Source: Promethearchaeota archaeon (GTDB lineage Archaea > Asgardarchaeota > Thorarchaeia > Thorarchaeales > Thorarchaeaceae). From it: DNA of 64,000 nucleotides. Position 1 is the first letter of the stretch. Each line of letters starts with the position of its first letter. Both the position numbers and the translations under genes were made by a program. The notes under the pieces are model-generated. The model searched no databases and was not told the DNA's origin. It worked only from the letters and a program-made list of their open reading frames with translations. The DNA is taken from assembly GCA_014728035.1 (NCBI GenBank), contig WJMJ01000059.1, positions 64,001-128,000 on the forward strand, given 5' to 3'. Positions 193-9,574 of the stretch are shown piece after piece.

Positions 193-380
193 TGTCGCAC
201 TTCCTATGCTGGATGTCTGATGTCAGCTATAGTGACCTTCGTTATATCATTTCCGTCATGAATATAATATCAGAAAGATTAGTAGTATGGATTGTTTTTT
301 GAATAACTTTCATCGTAGTATTACCACAATCTCTATAAACACAAAATGAGTCCACACGTTTTGACTACTATGTCTTCATT

Positions 381-514
381 GGGCTAGTGGCTAAGCCAGG
401 CATAGCGACAGGCTCTTATTCCACTCAGCGTCCGTTGAGGTGCAGAGAGACTTGTTGGTCGTGGGTTCAAACGCTATGAGATTTCCTCGGGCGGAACGTA
501 TCCCACCTAGCCCG
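381..514 (+). tRNA. tRNA-Lys(CTT) with two introns (37/38 at 419-449; T-loop at ~471-499)
   Basis: Acceptor GGGCTAG/CTAGCCC, anticodon stem ACAGG/CTTGT with CT-CTT-A, T stem GTGGG/CCCAC. Both inserts form bulge-helix-bulge motifs (CTCT/AGAG; GTTC/GAAC). Confidence 0.9.
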
Positions 515-676
515 CCTTTCATACTTGTTTTTGGAACTGTAGTCAAGATGCTGATTCTGAAATCATCATGATGGTATAAAATCGGCAAGTACCGAAATTA
601 TGTTCGTTACCAAATGAAAGTATATATTGTGCGCTTCCACACCATATGAAAATATCAATGAGAACTTTGAGGTGAC

Positions 677-2311
677 ATGATGAGTACTATTATTACAAGT
701 AACAAATACTTTGTTTCAGTATTAATCATAACGATAATCTTTGCTGGTCTTACCTTTGGAAATCTTCCGAGTCCGGGAGTTTCAGCAGGAAGCCAAACAA
801 TTGATGGTGTTACATACAATTTTGCAGACTATGGCCAATTGAGCCATGAACAACTTGCTCTATTCAATTACTTGGATACTATTGTCAGTTCAAAGTACCA
901 AGGTTATGGAGAATGGGATGGATGGAATGCTGAAGATTTCCATGGTCTACACCACTATGTCATTGCCTTCATGAGTTATGCTGTTGCATCTATGTTCGAA
1001 ACGACTCCAGGATATCGTACATCATACTATCAGAATTTTGCGTATGACTTGGTCAAGAAGATGAATACCACAATTGACGATTGGGGCAATTCTTCAATCG
1101 AATATAAAGAGTGGGCTCATCCCGACTTTGATTTTACAGAGTATTACTATCCCAACGTCACCAATCCTGATGGAGATGACATCTATACAGGTGGATTTCG
1201 TGGTCCTGCAAACATTATGTGGACTGGTCATTATGCCTTGATGGAAACCTTGTATGAACGAAACTTCAACACTGGAGAGTTTGTTGATGAGATATCTTGG
1301 TTCATAAATGACTGGAATATCTCTCTTCTAACTGATGGGTTCGGTAATCCAAAAGAAGGTGGTATCTGGGGGGTTGGAATTATCCCTTGTGAACCCTACA
1401 TTGTCTTTTCACAATGCAATTCTATACCGATGGTTGCAACTGGGTTGTATGATAATCTCTATGCGACTGACTATCTACCAATGTGGGATTATGGCCTCAA
1501 CTTCATAAACACAGTGATGCAAGATGAGAACGATCTATATACTGATGGATATTTCATTCAAGAGCCTTTAGGATTCGTCTATGCTTCAACTGGAACCCCA
1601 CAAGAGTTTCCTGGACCTTCACTTGATCCATCTGCTGGATTACCTAAGGTGTCTTCATATGGAATTTCATGGGCATTAGCTTTCTTGGATTATTTCCAAC
1701 CAGAAGTTACTATAAATGAGTATCCTATCTTTTTAGAGAAATTCGGGCAAGAGATCTCTGGCAATCTGATGTATATGATGGACTCGTATCATCATCCCAC
1801 TGATTTTGGCACATACGAGCTTCTTGGTTCACTTTTCACAATGCTTCTGGCAAATCAGGTTCAAGATTATTCCACTCGTAACAGACTGATGAATTTCCTA
1901 TATGACTTGTACAATAAGATATGGTCTCCCGATGGTAGAACAATGTACTTTGACACAAGCTCACTTGAACCATTTCTCCAGTCGGTATTGGCTTTTGGAT
2001 ACATCTGGGCAAATAATGAGGTTTCCATCAGAGATTTGGTGGATTCCAGACAAAACGAGTTTTGGGACTACCCGTATATTAGCGAAGCGGATGACTCTCA
2101 TATTTGGGTCTATCAGGCTGAATGGGATGAATCCAAATCTGGCTTCATACTAAATCTTCGTGTAGACCAAACAGCGACATTGACTTTTGCCAATTTCGAC
2201 CATGCTCCTCATGCTTTCTTGGGTGGTAATATATTTTCAGAGCTTTCAGCCACATCCCAAGGGTACGAGCTAACATTGAATCCCGGATTATATAATCTGG
2301 TGATAGTATAG
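677..2311 (+). CDS. Secreted or membrane-anchored linalool dehydratase/isomerase-family protein
   Basis: N-terminal hydrophobic signal/anchor. Motifs NIMWTGH and GIIPCEPYIVFSQCNS match the recalled LinD motifs NIMYKGH and GIVCEPDNYFVQCNS. Extra C-terminal beta-rich domain. Confidence 0.75.
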   Translation: MMSTIITSNKYFVSVLIITIIFAGLTFGNLPSPGVSAGSQTIDGVTYNFADYGQLSHEQLALFNYLDTIVSSKYQGYGEWDGWNAEDFHGLHHYVIAFMSYAVASMFETTPGYRTSYYQNFAYDLVKKMNTTIDDWGNSSIEYKEWAHPDFDFTEYYYPNVTNPDGDDIYTGGFRGPANIMWTGHYALMETLYERNFNTGEFVDEISWFINDWNISLLTDGFGNPKEGGIWGVGIIPCEPYIVFSQCNSIPMVATGLYDNLYATDYLPMWDYGLNFINTVMQDENDLYTDGYFIQEPLGFVYASTGTPQEFPGPSLDPSAGLPKVSSYGISWALAFLDYFQPEVTINEYPIFLEKFGQEISGNLMYMMDSYHHPTDFGTYELLGSLFTMLLANQVQDYSTRNRLMNFLYDLYNKIWSPDGRTMYFDTSSLEPFLQSVLAFGYIWANNEVSIRDLVDSRQNEFWDYPYISEADDSHIWVYQAEWDESKSGFILNLRVDQTATLTFANFDHAPHAFLGGNIFSELSATSQGYELTLNPGLYNLVIV

Positions 2312-2322
2312 GCGGTGTAACT

Positions 2323-2940
2323 ATGTCTGAAACTCAAACAAAACAAAATGAAGAAACTAGTGATTCACCTTTCATTGAACGTTTTCACATAGAAAGTATT
2401 GAGATGCTTTCATTGACTATCTTATTTGGTCTGATTGGCTCGATATTGGTGTTTCTCTTAACATTGATTCCTTTCCCATATCAGACGATTTCTCTGTTCA
2501 AATTGGGTTTTGTATTTTCCTTGGCACTTATTGCGGTGATTGGTTCAATAAGAGGTCCTATCGCGGGTTTTCTATCTGGATATTTGGGTTTGATTCTCAA
2601 CGATTTCTTCATTGCTGGCACAATAGTCGGTCTGACCCTCCCAGCTGCATCTTATGGAGTTCTCGGATTTATTGTTGGGTTGGGAGTCTATGACTTCGAA
2701 AAAGGAAAATCGCTTGCAAAATTATCCATCATGTCTGCAATTGGTTTGGTATTTACTCTTTTGCTGATACTTCTTCTTGCATTGAGTTTACAGAGTTATT
2801 CTCTATTAGCTGCAATTGGATTTGTGATATTACCAATCGTAACTACTGGATTCCCTTCTGTAATTCTATTACCTCCGATTCTGGCAAGATTATGGCTTCT
2901 ATTCATGAATCGTTTCCTGCCTGATTTTGCGCCTGACTAA
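2323..2940 (+). CDS. ECF transporter S component (substrate unknown)
   Basis: About 5-6 TM helices with GPIAGFLSGYLG..LND motif typical of S components. 11 bp after the LinD-like gene. Confidence 0.7.
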   Translation: MSETQTKQNEETSDSPFIERFHIESIEMLSLTILFGLIGSILVFLLTLIPFPYQTISLFKLGFVFSLALIAVIGSIRGPIAGFLSGYLGLILNDFFIAGTIVGLTLPAASYGVLGFIVGLGVYDFEKGKSLAKLSIMSAIGLVFTLLLILLLALSLQSYSLLAAIGFVILPIVTTGFPSVILLPPILARLWLLFMNRFLPDFAPD

Positions 2941-2945
2941 TATTA

Positions 2946-2972
2946 GAGGGCCTTTTGGTCCTCACTTTTTTT
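2946..2972 (+). terminator. Hairpin plus T-tract terminator
   Basis: GAGGGCC-TTTT-GGTCCTC followed by a T run just after the S-component stop. Confidence 0.6.
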
Positions 2973-3121
2973 GAATTTTAATCCAAAACAAAAGATTAAT
3001 TAACAATAGTTACTAGAAGTACGTTGAGATTGAGGTGTCATCGCAAATTTTGATGAATCTTATAGAATCTCAGACAATTATGAAATGATGCAGTTGCATC
3101 AGATGTAGAGGAGTCATAGAA

Positions 3122-3772
3122 ATGGAAACAGTAGAGGAACATAAACGAATGCTTCTGATTGGAGAACAGGTCCCCGATTTTGAAACCAATACCACCCATG
3201 GCCACATCAAATTCTCAGAGTGGGCCAAGGATAGCTGGGTGATTCTTTTCTCCCATCCTGCTGATTTTACTCCGGTTTGTACTACTGAGTTTATTGGATT
3301 CAGTGAGATTCATCCGGAACTGAAAAAACGAAACGTCAAACTCATTGGATTAAGTATAGATAGTGTATATTCACATATTGCTTGGGTTCGAACAATTAAA
3401 GAAAAAATGGGTGTAGATATACCCTTCCCAATAATTGAAGATTTGAGCATGGATGTTGCAAAGAAATACGGAATGCTTCATCCCGCACAGAGCTCAACTT
3501 CTGCTGTGCGTGCAGTCTTCTTTATTGACCCCGAGTTTAAACTTCGTGCACTGATCTATTATCCTTTGAGTAATGGTAGAAGTATGAGTGAAATTCTAAG
3601 AATCATTGATGCTTTTCAAACTTCTGACAAGCATGGCGTTGCGACGCCCGCAAATTGGGAACCTGGAAAAGAAGTAATAGTACCTCCTCCAAAAACCCAA
3701 GAAGCAGCGGAAAAACGCTTGGCAGAAGGATATGATTGCAAAGACTGGTTCTTTTGCAAGAAGAAACTATAA
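3122..3772 (+). CDS. Peroxiredoxin (Prx6/archaeal AhpC type)
   Basis: FSHPADFTPVCTTE peroxidatic motif; C-terminal CKDWFFC. Confidence 0.95.
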   Translation: METVEEHKRMLLIGEQVPDFETNTTHGHIKFSEWAKDSWVILFSHPADFTPVCTTEFIGFSEIHPELKKRNVKLIGLSIDSVYSHIAWVRTIKEKMGVDIPFPIIEDLSMDVAKKYGMLHPAQSSTSAVRAVFFIDPEFKLRALIYYPLSNGRSMSEILRIIDAFQTSDKHGVATPANWEPGKEVIVPPPKTQEAAEKRLAEGYDCKDWFFCKKKL

Positions 3773-3887
3773 TCAAATAGGGGCGCAATGCCCACTTTCT
3801 TTTTTTATGAATCAATTATCTGAAAAGTAGCCAGACTTATAGGTAGCAATTTATCAGATTATTCCAATAGTCTTGGAGTGTCTTAGA

Positions 3888-4691
3888 ATGATATTCAATC
3901 CATTGGGTTCTGATCTTCAGATATTATGGGATTTTATTGCAACTTTTCTGTCCTTCTTGCTTGTACTTATTGTTGTTCAAATCAATGGTGCAATTCAGAA
4001 GAGCGGGAAATTATCAGCTGATATAACTCGAAAAATTGTACATATCTTTGCAGCACCTGTGTATCTAGTTAGCTGGATGCTATTCTCCGGTGGCTCCTTG
4101 AGTAGGTTCTTTGCAATGATTGTGCCTTTGCTATTCGTTATTCTTTTCGTTTCTATTGGTACTGGAAAGGTAGTAAATGAGGCATTTGTAGGTTCGATGT
4201 CTCGTTCTGGAAACCCTCGAGAGTTACTTGGTGGTACTCTCTATTACGCACTGATGCTTGTAATCGTAACTGTTCTTTGGTTCTATGTTCCATCTGATGC
4301 CCTTGGTAATCCAACTCCAATAGCTTTCATTGTCTTTGGATGCGTAGCTGGCGGCGATGGGTTGGCTGATGTTATAGGACGAAAATATGGTGGTGAGAAG
4401 AAATTTGGAATTGGTGGAGCTGAACGTACAGTAATCGGATCAATTGCCATGTTTATTGGATCTTTTCTATTCAGTTTCCTCTTAATTGCAATATTTTCAC
4501 TAGAGGTTGGATTTTCTATTACACTCATGATTCTTCCCGTTCTTATTCTTAGTATCGTTGCTACGATTACTGAGGCTCTGTCTCCAAAGGGGCTGGATAA
4601 TTGGACAGTACCAATTGTATTGGTTATTGTGATTGTAATTATGGGCTTATTCCTACCTACACTCTGGCCATATCCACTATTAACTATCTAA
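3888..4691 (+). CDS. CTP-dependent prenol kinase family (phytol/farnesol/dolichol kinase-like) membrane protein
   Basis: RKIVHI, GTLYY, GDGLADVIGRKYG, RTVIGS and DNWTVP motifs; multi-TM. ATG at 3888 preferred over TTG 3873. Confidence 0.82.
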   Translation: MIFNPLGSDLQILWDFIATFLSFLLVLIVVQINGAIQKSGKLSADITRKIVHIFAAPVYLVSWMLFSGGSLSRFFAMIVPLLFVILFVSIGTGKVVNEAFVGSMSRSGNPRELLGGTLYYALMLVIVTVLWFYVPSDALGNPTPIAFIVFGCVAGGDGLADVIGRKYGGEKKFGIGGAERTVIGSIAMFIGSFLFSFLLIAIFSLEVGFSITLMILPVLILSIVATITEALSPKGLDNWTVPIVLVIVIVIMGLFLPTLWPYPLLTI

Positions 4692-4706
4692 TGAGGTTCC
4701 AACTTC

Positions 4707-5525
4707 ATGAGCTCTCACTTGACTGTCTTGAAACTTGGTGGCTCTTTGCTTACCGATAAATCCCATCCATATGTAGTCCGAGAAGACATCATTGCTTCAG
4801 TATCCAAAGAAATCAGGGAATGTATGGATTCAGGACTCATTCAGTTTCTTGTATTAGTTCATGGAGTTGGCTCCTATGGACACCCTCCTGTTCTTGAACA
4901 TAAACTGCACAAGGGATTTCTCGGAACTGAACAATTACTTCCGATTTCAAAGACTCAAGCGATAGTTGGCGAATTTCGAGCCCTGCTTGTGAAACATCTT
5001 CAAGAAGCAGAGATTCCCGTTTGCCTGATGTATCCTTCGTCTATGATAATTGCTGAGAAGATGAAGATAATTGATTTCTATCTAGAGCCCCTCAAAGCTT
5101 GGTTGAAGATGGGTACGGTTCCCCTTTTAGGCGGAGATATGCTTGTTGATACTGCTATGGGCTGGTCTGTAGGTAGTGGTGACCAAATGGCAGTAATCTT
5201 GAGTAAAGAATTGTGTGCCAAACGTCTTATCTTCGCGTCGGATGTTTCAGGAATCTATGAATCAGAACCAAAAGAAAACCCAGATGCTCAAATCATCCAT
5301 GAAATAAATTTGAATGAAGTTGACTCTATACTTGAGAGACTCAGCAAATCGGGTACAAAAGATGCAAGTGGTGCAATGAAAGGAAAACTACATTCAATAC
5401 TTCCTGCAAAAGACTTGATTGAGAATGGGCTTGATGTTACCATAATGTCGATGATGAAATATGGCACTCTAACAAAACTACTAGAAAATGAAGAAGATAT
5501 TGGTACGAAAATTGTTTCCAAGTAG
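4707..5525 (+). CDS. ipk: Isopentenyl phosphate kinase
   Basis: Amino-acid-kinase fold KLGGSLLTDK, HGVGSYGH (IPK-specific His), SGD, D.SGAMKGK. Confidence 0.85.
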   Translation: MSSHLTVLKLGGSLLTDKSHPYVVREDIIASVSKEIRECMDSGLIQFLVLVHGVGSYGHPPVLEHKLHKGFLGTEQLLPISKTQAIVGEFRALLVKHLQEAEIPVCLMYPSSMIIAEKMKIIDFYLEPLKAWLKMGTVPLLGGDMLVDTAMGWSVGSGDQMAVILSKELCAKRLIFASDVSGIYESEPKENPDAQIIHEINLNEVDSILERLSKSGTKDASGAMKGKLHSILPAKDLIENGLDVTIMSMMKYGTLTKLLENEEDIGTKIVSK

Positions 5526-5566
5526 TAAAAATAATCTGTTCTTGCTTATCTTCTCTCATTGAGGAG

Positions 5567-6640
5567 TTGTATTTGTCTGTACCAACACGATCTCAGCAAA
5601 ATTATCGAGACCGTGATATATTTAGAGACGCGAAAGATCGAATCTATGTCACACTTGGTCATATTCAACCAAAAGACGGAATCATCTCAACTTTGAAGTA
5701 TGTACCTGATAGGAAAGGGAAATGGCAGTCACAGGGAATCCGTTATCGAAGGGTATTTTCAAATAATGTGGAAAGTGTTACGGGTGGTCAAGGGATTTTG
5801 CCAGATGACTATTATGATGATAGCCATTTTGGTATTCCATTACTAAAGTTTCCAAAACATGAGGTCACTCAATATTACTCTCCTGAGAAACGTCTAGAAT
5901 CTCTTCTAGAAACTGGATGTAATGATCCGTTAGAACAGACTGCTGTTGAATTATCGCAAATTCTTCATGATAATTTGGATATTCCCTTCAATCATTTGGG
6001 TGTAACTGGTAGTATTGCATGGCATGCTCACAATCCCGGCTTCTCAGATATCAACTTAAACATTCATGGATATGAGTGGAGTTGGATATTAGAACAAGGC
6101 TATTCTGAACTGGTTGAGGAAAATACTGAATTACAGATGAAAAAAGGAAATCTTTGGGATGACTCAATAGCACGTGCCGCTAAACGGATTCCTGTTCTTC
6201 GTTCTAGTGCATTAAAGAGGCTTTTCACTCGACGTACGCAACTAATGTATAATGGACATGGAGTTACTATTATGCCAGTCCTGTACTCTTCCGAATCTCC
6301 AATTAGATATGGTTCTGAGAAGTATTATACTCTTGATTTAGTCATATCTGATTTTAAAATCAAATCTTCAAGGTATGGTATTTTCTTCCCTGCAATCTAT
6401 GATGTCACTGGAGAAGTCCAATATGAAACACAAATTCTGTCAATTAATCGGCTCTTAATCTATGATGGTACCTTTCGAGGCTTATTTCATCCAGAAGACC
6501 AAATTCAAGTATGTGGCACTCTTCAAAGAGTGGAATCATCTGAACAAAAATCACCTTTTCATCAGATTATGATTGGCACTAAATCTGGTAGCGGCAGAGA
6601 ATTCATCAAATTAACTAGACCATCACAGTCATATCTGTAA
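5567..6640 (+). CDS. Archaeal predicted nucleotidyltransferase (COG1665-like)
   Basis: GVTGS...SDI Pol-beta-type motif; LKYVP; C-terminal OB-like region. Confidence 0.6.
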   Translation: MYLSVPTRSQQNYRDRDIFRDAKDRIYVTLGHIQPKDGIISTLKYVPDRKGKWQSQGIRYRRVFSNNVESVTGGQGILPDDYYDDSHFGIPLLKFPKHEVTQYYSPEKRLESLLETGCNDPLEQTAVELSQILHDNLDIPFNHLGVTGSIAWHAHNPGFSDINLNIHGYEWSWILEQGYSELVEENTELQMKKGNLWDDSIARAAKRIPVLRSSALKRLFTRRTQLMYNGHGVTIMPVLYSSESPIRYGSEKYYTLDLVISDFKIKSSRYGIFFPAIYDVTGEVQYETQILSINRLLIYDGTFRGLFHPEDQIQVCGTLQRVESSEQKSPFHQIMIGTKSGSGREFIKLTRPSQSYL

Positions 6641-6685
6641 ATCTTGAGTTTGATATTAATTAATCAGAAAAGGACCTTGCTATAT

Positions 6686-7747
6686 ATGAGTTCGAAAAAG
6701 CCCTCCATATCTGTCCCTATTTCCTTTGGAGAGAACACTCGGAAGGCCCTTTTGGAAGCAGACCTTTTGGACATTTCATTTAAAATCCGTTCAGTGAATG
6801 GCACTTTGCTTCTTCCTTTGACCAAAGAACTTACCGAGAATGAATTATTTCGTTTACTTGGGCATGATGAGTTTCAAATAGAACATGAAGAATTCGAATC
6901 TATTCCCTCAAGTCCCCGAACTCTTGCAGAAGTAATGTCTGATGAGTTATCTCCTAGTGAACTAGAACTTTTACCTCGCGCATATGATTTGATTGGTGAT
7001 ATAGCTATTCTCGAGATTCCTGAAGAATTGATTCAGTATAAAGATAAAATTGGTGAAGCATTCCGATCTCTTCACAAGAACGTATCCGTTGTATTAGCAA
7101 AGCAGGGTGCAATTTCTGGAACTACACGAATACGTGATTATGATTTGATTGCTGGTGAGCATCGGACCAATACGACTCATATCGAGTATGGTTGTAGAAT
7201 TGCAGTTGATTTGGCAAAGGCATACTTCAGCCCTCGTTTGTTAGAGGAACATAATCGGATAGCAAAACAAGTCACTCCTGGTGAAACTATCATTGACATG
7301 TTCACTGGAGTAGGTCCTTTTCCACTGCACATAGCTAAAGAAACGGACGCGATAGTCTTTGCTATCGATATTAATCCTGATGCAATCTCACTCCTGAAAA
7401 AAAGTATGAAATTAAACAAATTTGTAGGTCGAATCACTCCAATTATTGCGGATGCGGAGTTATATGTGACAGAAAATTTCGACAGTAATGCTGACCGAGT
7501 GATAATGAATCATCCTTCTGGTGCTAGCTCATTTGTCAAAGCAGCATGTATAGCATTGAAACCCGACGGTATAATGCACTACTATGATTTCGTGGGTGGT
7601 GATGACCCTGAAGCATTAATGATTTCGCGTTTGAAAAGTTTAATCAAATCTGCTGGATATAGCATTGATCAAGTATTGCATGTTAGACGGGTTCGAGATA
7701 GTGCTCCGTATGAGTATCAGATGGCTGTAGATGTAGTTATTCAATAA
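6686..7747 (+). CDS. trm5: Trm5/Taw2-family tRNA methyltransferase (m1G37)
   Basis: YDLIGDIAI, YFSPRL..E..RI, DMFTGVGPF, DINP. ATG at 6686 likely. Confidence 0.85.
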   Translation: MSSKKPSISVPISFGENTRKALLEADLLDISFKIRSVNGTLLLPLTKELTENELFRLLGHDEFQIEHEEFESIPSSPRTLAEVMSDELSPSELELLPRAYDLIGDIAILEIPEELIQYKDKIGEAFRSLHKNVSVVLAKQGAISGTTRIRDYDLIAGEHRTNTTHIEYGCRIAVDLAKAYFSPRLLEEHNRIAKQVTPGETIIDMFTGVGPFPLHIAKETDAIVFAIDINPDAISLLKKSMKLNKFVGRITPIIADAELYVTENFDSNADRVIMNHPSGASSFVKAACIALKPDGIMHYYDFVGGDDPEALMISRLKSLIKSAGYSIDQVLHVRRVRDSAPYEYQMAVDVVIQ

Positions 7748-8219: not shown

Positions 8220-8897
8220 ATGTCAACTGATGATTTGTTACAGAAGAAGGACTCTTTGATTGCTCGATTAAAAGCGAAAGGCTATTTGAAGAGTGAAACT
8301 GTAGAAAGGGCAGTTAGAAAAGTACCACGCGAAGAATTTGTTCCGACAAAAGTTCTCAATCAATCTTATGTTGACAGGCCTCTATCGATCCATCATGGAC
8401 AAACAATTTCCGCTCCGCATATGTGTGTGATAATGTGTGAGACAATGAAGTTAGAGGAGGGGCATTCTGTTCTTGAAATTGGTGCTGGTTCTGGGTATCA
8501 TGCTGCATTATGTGCTGAAATTGTAGCTCCTGAAAAATCATCAAATCCTGGGCATATTTACACTATTGAAATTGTTGAATCACTAATCAAATATGCAGAA
8601 AAAAATCTGGAGCGTTCAGGATACTCAGATAGAGTTACTCTGATTCATGGCGATGGCGGCAAGGGATATTCTGAGAGAGCACCGTATGATCGGGTCCTGG
8701 TGACTGCTGCAGCTCCAGAAATACCAAAGCCATTAATCGAACAATTGGCACCTAATGGTATTATGGCAATCCCTGTTGGATCCAGAGGATGGTACCAAGA
8801 ACTAAAAATTGTTCACAAAGACTCGGACGGAAAAATTAAGATTGACCGTTGGGGCGGTGTTGCTTTCGTTCCTCTTACTGGTGAGTTTGGTCATTAA
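8220..8897 (+). CDS. pcm: Protein-L-isoaspartate O-methyltransferase
   Basis: GQTISAPHM, VLEIGAGSGY, APYDR, VAFVPL. Confidence 0.95.
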   Translation: MSTDDLLQKKDSLIARLKAKGYLKSETVERAVRKVPREEFVPTKVLNQSYVDRPLSIHHGQTISAPHMCVIMCETMKLEEGHSVLEIGAGSGYHAALCAEIVAPEKSSNPGHIYTIEIVESLIKYAEKNLERSGYSDRVTLIHGDGGKGYSERAPYDRVLVTAAAPEIPKPLIEQLAPNGIMAIPVGSRGWYQELKIVHKDSDGKIKIDRWGGVAFVPLTGEFGH

Positions 8898-9574
8898 GTT
8901 CTCAAGTGTAAGGGGATTATTGAGAGCTTGACTTCGTCATGGTTGGCTATTTTCAATTCCTCTCTGATATTTACAGGTGCGATGATTTCCAATATATTTT
9001 GACTATGATGTGTTCTTTGTGCGATGACTATAGCAGCTTCAATTTTGTCATTAACTCTCACTCTGTAACAGATAACATCACCAAAGGTTCTACCATCATG
9101 ACTGAAACCTTGTACGATTAGTGGTGGAGTGTGTTTCATTCTACTGATTGCTTTCCTAGAAACTTCGTTGTTTATTTTTACATTAAGAGTGCCTGCATAT
9201 GGTTTAAAGCCTAGAACTTCTGTGAATTTCTCCGAATAGACTTCGACATAATATGCCCCTTCACCTATACCTTCAACAACCTCTCCTCGAATTACAATCT
9301 TATCACTAGGAGGTGCCATGGCAATTTCTAGATTGTTGTATACCCTATCGAGTTCCTTTAGTCCTCTCGGAGTAATTTTTAGAATCATTCCACTGGCTGT
9401 ATGCGCCCGTGTAACTAGACCTTCATCTACACAATCGGTTATTCTCCTTGAAGCAGTCTGCTGACTCAGTTCAAGTGCGTTACCCAACTCTCTTGTAGTC
9501 ATAGTCACATTTCGATGGATTGCACCTTTACAGGCCAATGTATACAATGTAAACCATGTATCTGGTGAAGTCAT
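8894..9574 (-). CDS. ribK: CTP-dependent riboflavin kinase with N-terminal winged HTH
   Basis: SQQTASR HTH; G.GEGAYY, PYAGTLN, LEIIAP. Confidence 0.9.
   Translation of the reverse strand: MTSPDTWFTLYTLACKGAIHRNVTMTTRELGNALELSQQTASRRITDCVDEGLVTRAHTASGMILKITPRGLKELDRVYNNLEIAMAPPSDKIVIRGEVVEGIGEGAYYVEVYSEKFTEVLGFKPYAGTLNVKINNEVSRKAISRMKHTPPLIVQGFSHDGRTFGDVICYRVRVNDKIEAAIVIAQRTHHSQNILEIIAPVNIREELKIANHDEVKLSIIPLHLRT

Follow-up and report, generated by a model that had tools for sequence, protein, structure and literature searches.

Do five co-oriented genes of an Asgard archaeon encode one route for the recovery of isoprenoid alcohols, or do they belong to separate functions? The genes are found at positions 677 to 5525 of a contiguous stretch of 64,000 nucleotides (the window) of contig WJMJ01000059.1 from Promethearchaeota archaeon (Thorarchaeales); window coordinates are numbered from its start. 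The original prediction joined four of the five genes into a single route: an exported enzyme of the LinD family (the Ldi-like protein) would make primary allylic alcohols, an S-component of the energy-coupling factor (ECF) type would import them, a prenol-type membrane kinase (PK) would convert them into monophosphates and a paralogue of isopentenyl phosphate kinase (IPK2) would make the diphosphates. On balance, the locus probably consists instead of two independent, tightly coupled pairs, i.e., module A (Ldi-like protein and S-component) and module B (PK and IPK2), which share a syntenic backbone in Thorarchaeia. In this reading a short isoprenoid alcohol would probably receive two phosphates in succession from PK-IPK2, and the Ldi/S-component pair has a separate function.

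Conservation of the PK-IPK2 pair

PK (3888..4691, + strand) is a polytopic membrane protein of 267 amino acids when counted from the ATG at 3888; its open reading frame opens with a TTG at 3873. IPK2 (4707..5525, + strand), an isopentenyl phosphate kinase (IPK) paralogue of 272 amino acids, follows after a gap of 15 bp. The distribution of both genes was established in 87 Thorarchaeia genomes and in 301 sampled Asgard genomes, the families of which are labelled f2, f6, etc. PK orthologues are present in 64 of the 87 Thorarchaeia genomes. IPK2 lies immediately 3' of PK, on the same strand, in 61 of these 64, with gaps of 18-45 bp; the three cases of PK without adjacent IPK2 correspond to a 3.3-kb insertion, one loss and one contig end. 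The 23 Thorarchaeia genomes devoid of PK are also devoid of a full IPK2, except for a divergent IPK2-like gene (G014) and a contig-end fragment (G087). The two genes are adjacent also in f9 (12 genomes), f23, f12, f2 and f6; in f6 the order is reversed, and the identity of IPK2 decreases to 36-38%. PK-IPK2 is an operon conserved over at least six Asgard families. As a side observation, no IPK2 adjoins PK in the relative G082.

PK-IPK2 can be regarded as a functional two-gene unit because (i) the genes are adjacent; (ii) they are lost jointly; (iii) their order is flipped without breaking the pair; (iv) both have housekeeping paralogues. For PK, this paralogue is found at C94, and the C94 type is universal. 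The prediction of a complex between PK and IPK2 gave a score of 0.01, i.e., no verdict either way. A search for sequencing runs from which expression could be read listed none. A search of the literature found no publication describing either PK-IPK2 or the Ldi/S-component pair.

Nature of PK

PK has no match in Pfam or NCBIfam, even at E 10. A profile search of the PDB gave nothing better than CdsA at E 0.49, and a Foldseek search of the PDB gave no significant match. The predicted structure of PK has a mean predicted local distance difference test (pLDDT) value of 84. It aligns with the Atlas cluster «putative phytol kinase» (Streptophyta) with a template modelling score (TM) of 0.84 over 244 residues and a root mean square deviation of 2.2, and with the cluster of the polyprenol kinase family with TM values of 0.82/0.93; predicted models are compared with predicted models in both cases. 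When the C-terminal half is compared with the PDB by means of VIA-align, the best scores, which are middling, are those of CarS (5guf, Z 7.5) and CdsA (4q2e, Z 5.9).

Two motifs are invariant in 26 homologues of PK, i.e., R48-K49-x-x-H52 and G155-G-D-G-x-A-D161. A GDG loop is typical of the CTP-dependent prenol kinase family. The homologues carry, in their sources, the names dolichol kinase, phytol kinase or polyprenol kinase. The R-K-x-x-H motif has been described as a charged clamp in the Plasmodium prenol kinase PfPolK (PMC10849223). Taken together, the predicted fold, the motifs and the database names point to PK being a CTP-dependent kinase of the prenol/phytol/dolichol kind (VTE5, FOLK, dolichol kinase). 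The possibility that PK is a CDP-archaeol synthase (CarS) was also considered and ruled out, as a separate CarS is encoded at C25:45963-46508 (PF01864, 152.7 bits). Four of the five family assignments of the original prediction are borne out by scores against hidden Markov models (HMM), with the reservation that the S-component of the window is itself under the cut-off; that of the membrane kinase is retained on fold and motifs, with no HMM match.

IPK2, IPK1 and the mevalonate pathway

IPK2 scores 176.3 bits against the NF040647 equivalog model (cut-off 120) and matches the IPKs of the PDB with E from 1e-33 to 5e-28. Residues K9, G11-G12, H59, D144 and S157-x-D159 are kept throughout, or almost throughout, the 19 IPK2 orthologues compared, and the enzyme is, as far as its sequence can be read, catalytically intact.

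Whether the genome has a second IPK was a question raised with the original prediction, and such a gene was found. IPK1 (C9:185200-185967, i.e., locus L004 8192-9001, - strand) scores 176.6 bits against the same model, is 24% identical to IPK2 and divergently adjoins the gene of ribosomal protein S10. It has L, A and H in place of H52, S56 and the aromatic residue 142 of canonical IPKs. IPK1-type genes occur in nearly all the genomes of the family, IPK2 in about three quarters. In about 23 genomes IPK1 occurs without IPK2; in G044 (a single contig), G047 and G066, no IPK-family gene apart from IPK2 exceeds the cut-off. Since either paralogue can be the sole IPK, IPK2 is judged, from gene content and sequence, to be a genuine isopentenyl phosphate (IP) kinase that would be able to make isopentenyl diphosphate for the mevalonate pathway. 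In a tree of IPKs (quick version), IPK1 and IPK2 form separate clades; the deep branching is not resolved and the ancestral copy is not assigned.

MVK and AcnX (the large subunit of phosphomevalonate dehydratase) are present in the source genome, therefore the archaeal mevalonate route is in place, with IP as its last intermediate. The genes of MVK and AcnX (C25:24660-28073) and that of CarS are located on the contig of the window, 18-40 kb upstream, and adjoin neither IPK.

The pocket positions R1-R4 of IPKs, as taken from PMC8500459 and from mutant PDB sequences, were used to estimate chain length. From R1 to R4, IPK2 has L/I, T, I/M and V, while the corresponding residues of IPK1 are I/V, I, V and I; both sets are within the range of characterised C5 IPKs (PMC8500459). 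The pocket of IPK2 suggests a short chain for the substrate of PK-IPK2. C20 alcohols, which had been among the proposed substrates, are not indicated, the pocket residues of IPK2 being of ordinary C5-type size. A wide-open pocket for C15-C20 chains was rejected on the R1-R4 residues, Gly142 being left unexplained. This Gly142 is specific to the IPK2 clade (18/19) and precedes the catalytic Asp144 by two residues; IPK1 has His at this position, which is occupied by F, Y or W in other IPKs of Asgard archaea. Moreover, Val replaces Ile at R4 in IPK2.

Substrate of the PK-IPK2 pair

According to the proposed mechanism, PK, acting at the membrane, would phosphorylate a free isoprenoid alcohol, probably of short chain length (C5-C10), and IPK2 would add the second phosphate to the product of PK. 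These two steps would return alcohols to the diphosphate pool and would add IP kinase capacity.

The main rival of this proposal is that PK and IPK2 are co-expressed without having a substrate in common: PK, as a second dolichol/polyprenol kinase, would serve the recycling of the lipid that carries glycans, IPK2 would be an isozyme of the mevalonate pathway, and the operon would couple isoprenoid supply to carrier-lipid recycling. It agrees with the status of IPK2 as sole IPK in some genomes, with the C5-type appearance of its pocket residues, with the name dolichol kinase given by JGI to many homologues of PK, and with the long chains on which known members of the PK family act (PMC9782597, PMC10849223). 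Nevertheless, the housekeeping roles are already covered by the universal C94-type paralogue of PK and by a DUF92/VTE6-like gene, which is unlinked (C37:70168). In addition, the strict co-occurrence, the co-loss and the adjacency, maintained down to 36% identity of IPK2 and even when the order is flipped, exceed the usual loose co-regulation. Separate substrates for PK and IPK2 are thus rather unlikely in our estimation.

The Ldi-like protein

The Ldi-like protein (677..2311, + strand; 544 amino acids) scores 53.5 bits against PF18566 (cut-off 26.1), and PF18566 is present in 120 of 120 Ldi homologues among the matches listed. The family is scarce, with 145 clusters among 1.84 billion representatives. 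The sequence matches LinD (PDB 5g1u) at E 6e-10, the catalytic segment being aligned. In the AlphaFold model (pLDDT 90), a hydrophobic helix at the N-terminus, either a signal or an anchor, precedes an (alpha,alpha)6 barrel, which is followed by a C-terminal beta-sandwich (residues ~455-544). The top 27 Foldseek matches of the model are LinD chains (E 5e-15, TM by target of 0.77-0.79); the next fold is at E 7e-5.

All 29 homologues compared share C238, C247, H185 and M181, which correspond to C171, C180, H129 and M125 of LinD; the protein has no cysteines beyond the invariant catalytic pair C238/C247. The PF18566 score above the cut-off, the LinD fold and the invariant catalytic Cys-Cys, His and Met confirm the membership in the LinD family that had been proposed. 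In LinD, the catalytic cysteines are required in the reduced state (PMC6600392).

The Ldi-like protein is similar to LinD of Castellaniella defragrans (PDB 5g1u, 5hlr, 5i3t) in Pfam family, in fold and in predicted export, and it keeps E172 of LinD in addition to the Cys pair, H129 and M125. It differs from LinD in several respects: (i) the identity is ~20% and the protein is archaeal; (ii) the N-terminal anchor or signal is of another type; (iii) a C-terminal beta-sandwich of ~90 amino acids is added; (iv) D39 and Y45, contributed in LinD by the neighbouring protomer, and the C48-C101 disulfide are missing; (v) the archaeal gene has an S-component gene as partner. As regards the fourth point, the column of D67, which is the counterpart of D39, contains D in 14, N in 8 and another residue in 7 of the 29 sequences; the region of Y45 is gapped in the alignment, and the capping disulfide has no counterpart. 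Because the D39/Y45 contributions and the disulfide are missing, the Ldi-like protein may assemble in a manner unlike that of LinD.

Two tandem Ldi-like genes are located 5' of PK-IPK2 in the relatives G079 (C16:214668-219949) and G088 (C361:7845-11883), and partial Ldi matches (residues ~195-543) are found alone in G082 and G084.

The S-component and module A

The S-component-like membrane protein (2323..2940, + strand; 205 amino acids) is encoded 11 bp after the Ldi-like gene. Its score against PF07155 is 21.5 bits, i.e., under the cut-off of 26.7; PF07155 is matched by 12 of 16 orthologues (E 0.01 or better, best E 3.8e-8). Its Atlas model aligns with clusters of ECF S-components with TM values of 0.72-0.73 over 168-176 residues, the models being predicted on both sides.

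The S-component gene is directly 3' of Ldi in 17 of the 17 loci that are readable at this place, and one more locus stops at a contig edge. The distant Ldi members P0254 and P0247 also have an adjacent partner, with a confident PF07155 match. The sole Ldi observed without S-component is that of locus L101 (115-3689; GCA_048885165.1), in which Ldi is followed by PK-IPK2 with a gap of ~300 bp devoid of any S-component gene; the PK homologue of this assembly is labelled «Candidatus Odinarchaeota» by NCBI. Three CbiQ/EcfT genes are present elsewhere in the source genome and none is near the S-component gene. A search for S-components fused to longer proteins found none, which is weak evidence.

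In comparison with S-components of the RibU/PF07155 type, the protein shares its nature (a membrane protein of ~200 amino acids), the PF07155 match of its orthologues, the fold and the presence of EcfT in the genome. On the contrary, the copy of the window is very divergent, no EcfA or EcfT genes are nearby, and the gene is tied to that of an exported enzyme and not to a vitamin pathway.

Module A is best read as a separate pair that performs an extracellular conversion followed by capture of the product. Outside the cell, the exported Ldi-like enzyme would act on an unsaturated and probably terpenoid compound by hydration, dehydration or isomerisation, and the dedicated S-component would bind or import what is formed. 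One may ask whether the substrate is a terpenoid at all, i.e., whether the (alpha,alpha)6 barrel acts at the cell surface on a different compound, either unsaturated or glycosidic, while the S-component imports an unrelated micronutrient. The remoter fold matches are indeed glycoside hydrolases (GH105, GH76 and GH127), D39, Y45 and the C48-C101 disulfide of LinD lack conservation, the C-terminal beta-sandwich is an extra element, and known S-components bind vitamins. Nevertheless, LinD chains surpass all other folds by ten orders of magnitude in E-value, and the protein contains no cysteine apart from the invariant catalytic pair, which is accompanied by the invariant His and Met. A related Ldi member, on a probably bacterial contig, is moreover surrounded by genes of acyl-CoA dehydrogenase, enoyl-CoA hydratase, aldehyde dehydrogenase and alcohol dehydrogenase; such acyl-CoA/alcohol oxidation genes resemble those of terpene catabolism. 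We thus hold the non-terpenoid substrate to be improbable.

Relation between the two modules

The five genes of the original prediction were found as open reading frames, all on the + strand, and both tight couplings (Ldi/S-component and kinase/IPK) were observed. The division into about three transcription units also holds: terminator-like hairpins with T-runs follow the S-component gene (2946..2963, + strand, from a hairpin scan and reading of the sequence), where they end the Ldi/S-component unit, the peroxiredoxin gene (3781-3793) and IPK2 (5550..5566, + strand), the latter two from the hairpin scan. The peroxiredoxin encoded between the modules (3122..3772, + strand) scores 313.6 bits against NF009668 and also matches PF00578 and PF10417. 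In some relatives it lies between the modules, and in others it is absent from that place. The peroxiredoxin is a bystander and belongs to neither module.

The single four-gene route was not supported, since the two modules are not co-conserved, an outcome that the original prediction had itself named as refuting. Among the 87 Thorarchaeia genomes, 36 have both modules, 10 have Ldi only, 28 have PK only and 13 have neither, which corresponds to an odds ratio of 1.67 (p 0.34), i.e., presence and absence are not associated. Families that bear PK-IPK2 gave no Ldi (0/92 in f9, 0/14 in f12, 0/9 in f23, and none in f2 and f6). Conversely, the Ldi/S-component pair occurs without PK-IPK2 in the 10 Thorarchaeia genomes mentioned and in family f13. 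In f22 genomes that have both modules, these are 130-230 kb apart. The terminator-like hairpins further imply that the units are transcribed separately.

What speaks for the four-gene route is that its chemistry is coherent, that contig L101 has Ldi and then PK-IPK2 directly, and that the modules are adjacent (2.2 kb or less) in 19 of the 36 Thorarchaeia genomes that contain both, in six genera. It may be added that LinD also interconverts C5 alcohols with isoprene. A third gene, orf6, puts this adjacency in perspective. In 16 genomes in which PK-IPK2 is missing or located at another place, orf6 comes 3' of Ldi/S-component; in at least 31 genomes it comes 3' of IPK2, at a distance of 1.3-2.2 kb. 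Its synteny with Ldi/S-component is as tight as that of PK-IPK2. Since an unrelated gene shares the synteny, the adjacency of the modules belongs to a backbone, i.e., Ldi, S-component, (peroxiredoxin), [PK-IPK2], orf6 and Trm5, and in Thorarchaeia it looks like inherited synteny. Nothing in these data indicates that module B is supplied by module A, and the four-gene route is very improbable.

Several points weigh against our reading of the locus as two independent pairs, one of which phosphorylates short alcohols. First, the adjacency just described in 19 of 36 genomes may reflect a facultative functional link between the modules within Thorarchaeia. Second, Gly142 together with Val at R4 could enlarge the pocket of IPK2, so that chain length is not fixed. 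Third, PK has no significant HMM match, and its assignment is a matter of predicted fold, motifs and database names. Fourth, we know of no C5-specific member of the prenol kinase family; the characterised members use C15-C20 alcohols or dolichol. Fifth, where prenyl phosphates of long chain are concerned, the actual second kinase could be the product of the DUF92/VTE6-like gene.

Other features of the region

The orf6 gene (window 5567-6640) encodes 357 amino acids that have no match in Pfam, NCBIfam or the PDB; it is present in 76 of the 87 Thorarchaeia genomes. A Trm5b-like tRNA methyltransferase gene (6644-7747) follows 3 bp 3' of orf6, and this coupling hints at a role of orf6 in tRNA modification. 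Further on, a gene on the - strand (8894-9574) encodes a CTP-dependent riboflavin kinase with an N-terminal winged-helix; it is NF010762-like (185.8 bits for a cut-off of 279) and shares a syntenic block with PCMT and DUF371. A scan of window positions 300-680 for tRNA (ARAGORN, Rfam) found nothing.

Comparison with known systems and significance

Three known systems can be compared with PK-IPK2. The salvage by VTE5 or FOLK plus VTE6 in plants and cyanobacteria also has two steps, from alcohol to monophosphate and from monophosphate to diphosphate, and PK has the same predicted fold and motifs as VTE5 and FOLK (PMC9782597, PMC10849223). Nevertheless, the operon partner of PK is an IPK with the amino-acid-kinase fold and not a DUF92 protein, the DUF92 gene being unlinked, and the chain length is probably shorter. 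As for the archaeal IPKs (M. jannaschii, T. acidophilum, Ca. M. alvus and T. paralvinellae), IPK2 passes the equivalog cut-off and keeps the catalytic residues; it differs from them as a paralogue beside a second IPK and by Gly142, other IPKs having an aromatic residue or His at that position. The engineered isopentenol utilisation pathway has the same design, i.e., an alcohol kinase plus an IPK. On the contrary, the PK-IPK2 pairing is natural and conserved, and its first kinase is a membrane protein of the CTP type and not a choline kinase.

A broader proposal is that PK-IPK2 represents a natural, Asgard-wide route from alcohol to diphosphate, in which an enzyme of the IPK family, rather than a VTE6/DUF92 protein, would be the prenyl-phosphate kinase that partners a VTE5/FOLK-type kinase, perhaps fed by Ldi/S-component in Thorarchaeia. 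As a whole we regard this proposal as possible, with considerable doubt. If the proposal is true, PK-IPK2 would be a naturally occurring equivalent of the engineered isopentenol utilisation pathway. The pair could also be a source of natural components for the production of isoprenoids from supplied alcohols. Reviews describe the second kinase in the salvage of farnesol and geranylgeraniol as a «missing pathway» in organisms that are not photosynthetic (PMC9782597, PMC10849223), and PK-IPK2 is a concrete, clonable gene pair with which this missing second kinase of prenol salvage can be tested.

The existence of two IPK isozymes in many Asgard archaea, either of which may be the sole copy, matters for the reconstruction of the mevalonate pathway. 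As for module A, the LinD family has been thought almost unique to two bacteria (PMC6600392). A conserved, exported archaeal branch of Ldi, associated with an S-component, points to an extracellular reaction in which sediment archaea convert a terpene or some other unsaturated lipid.

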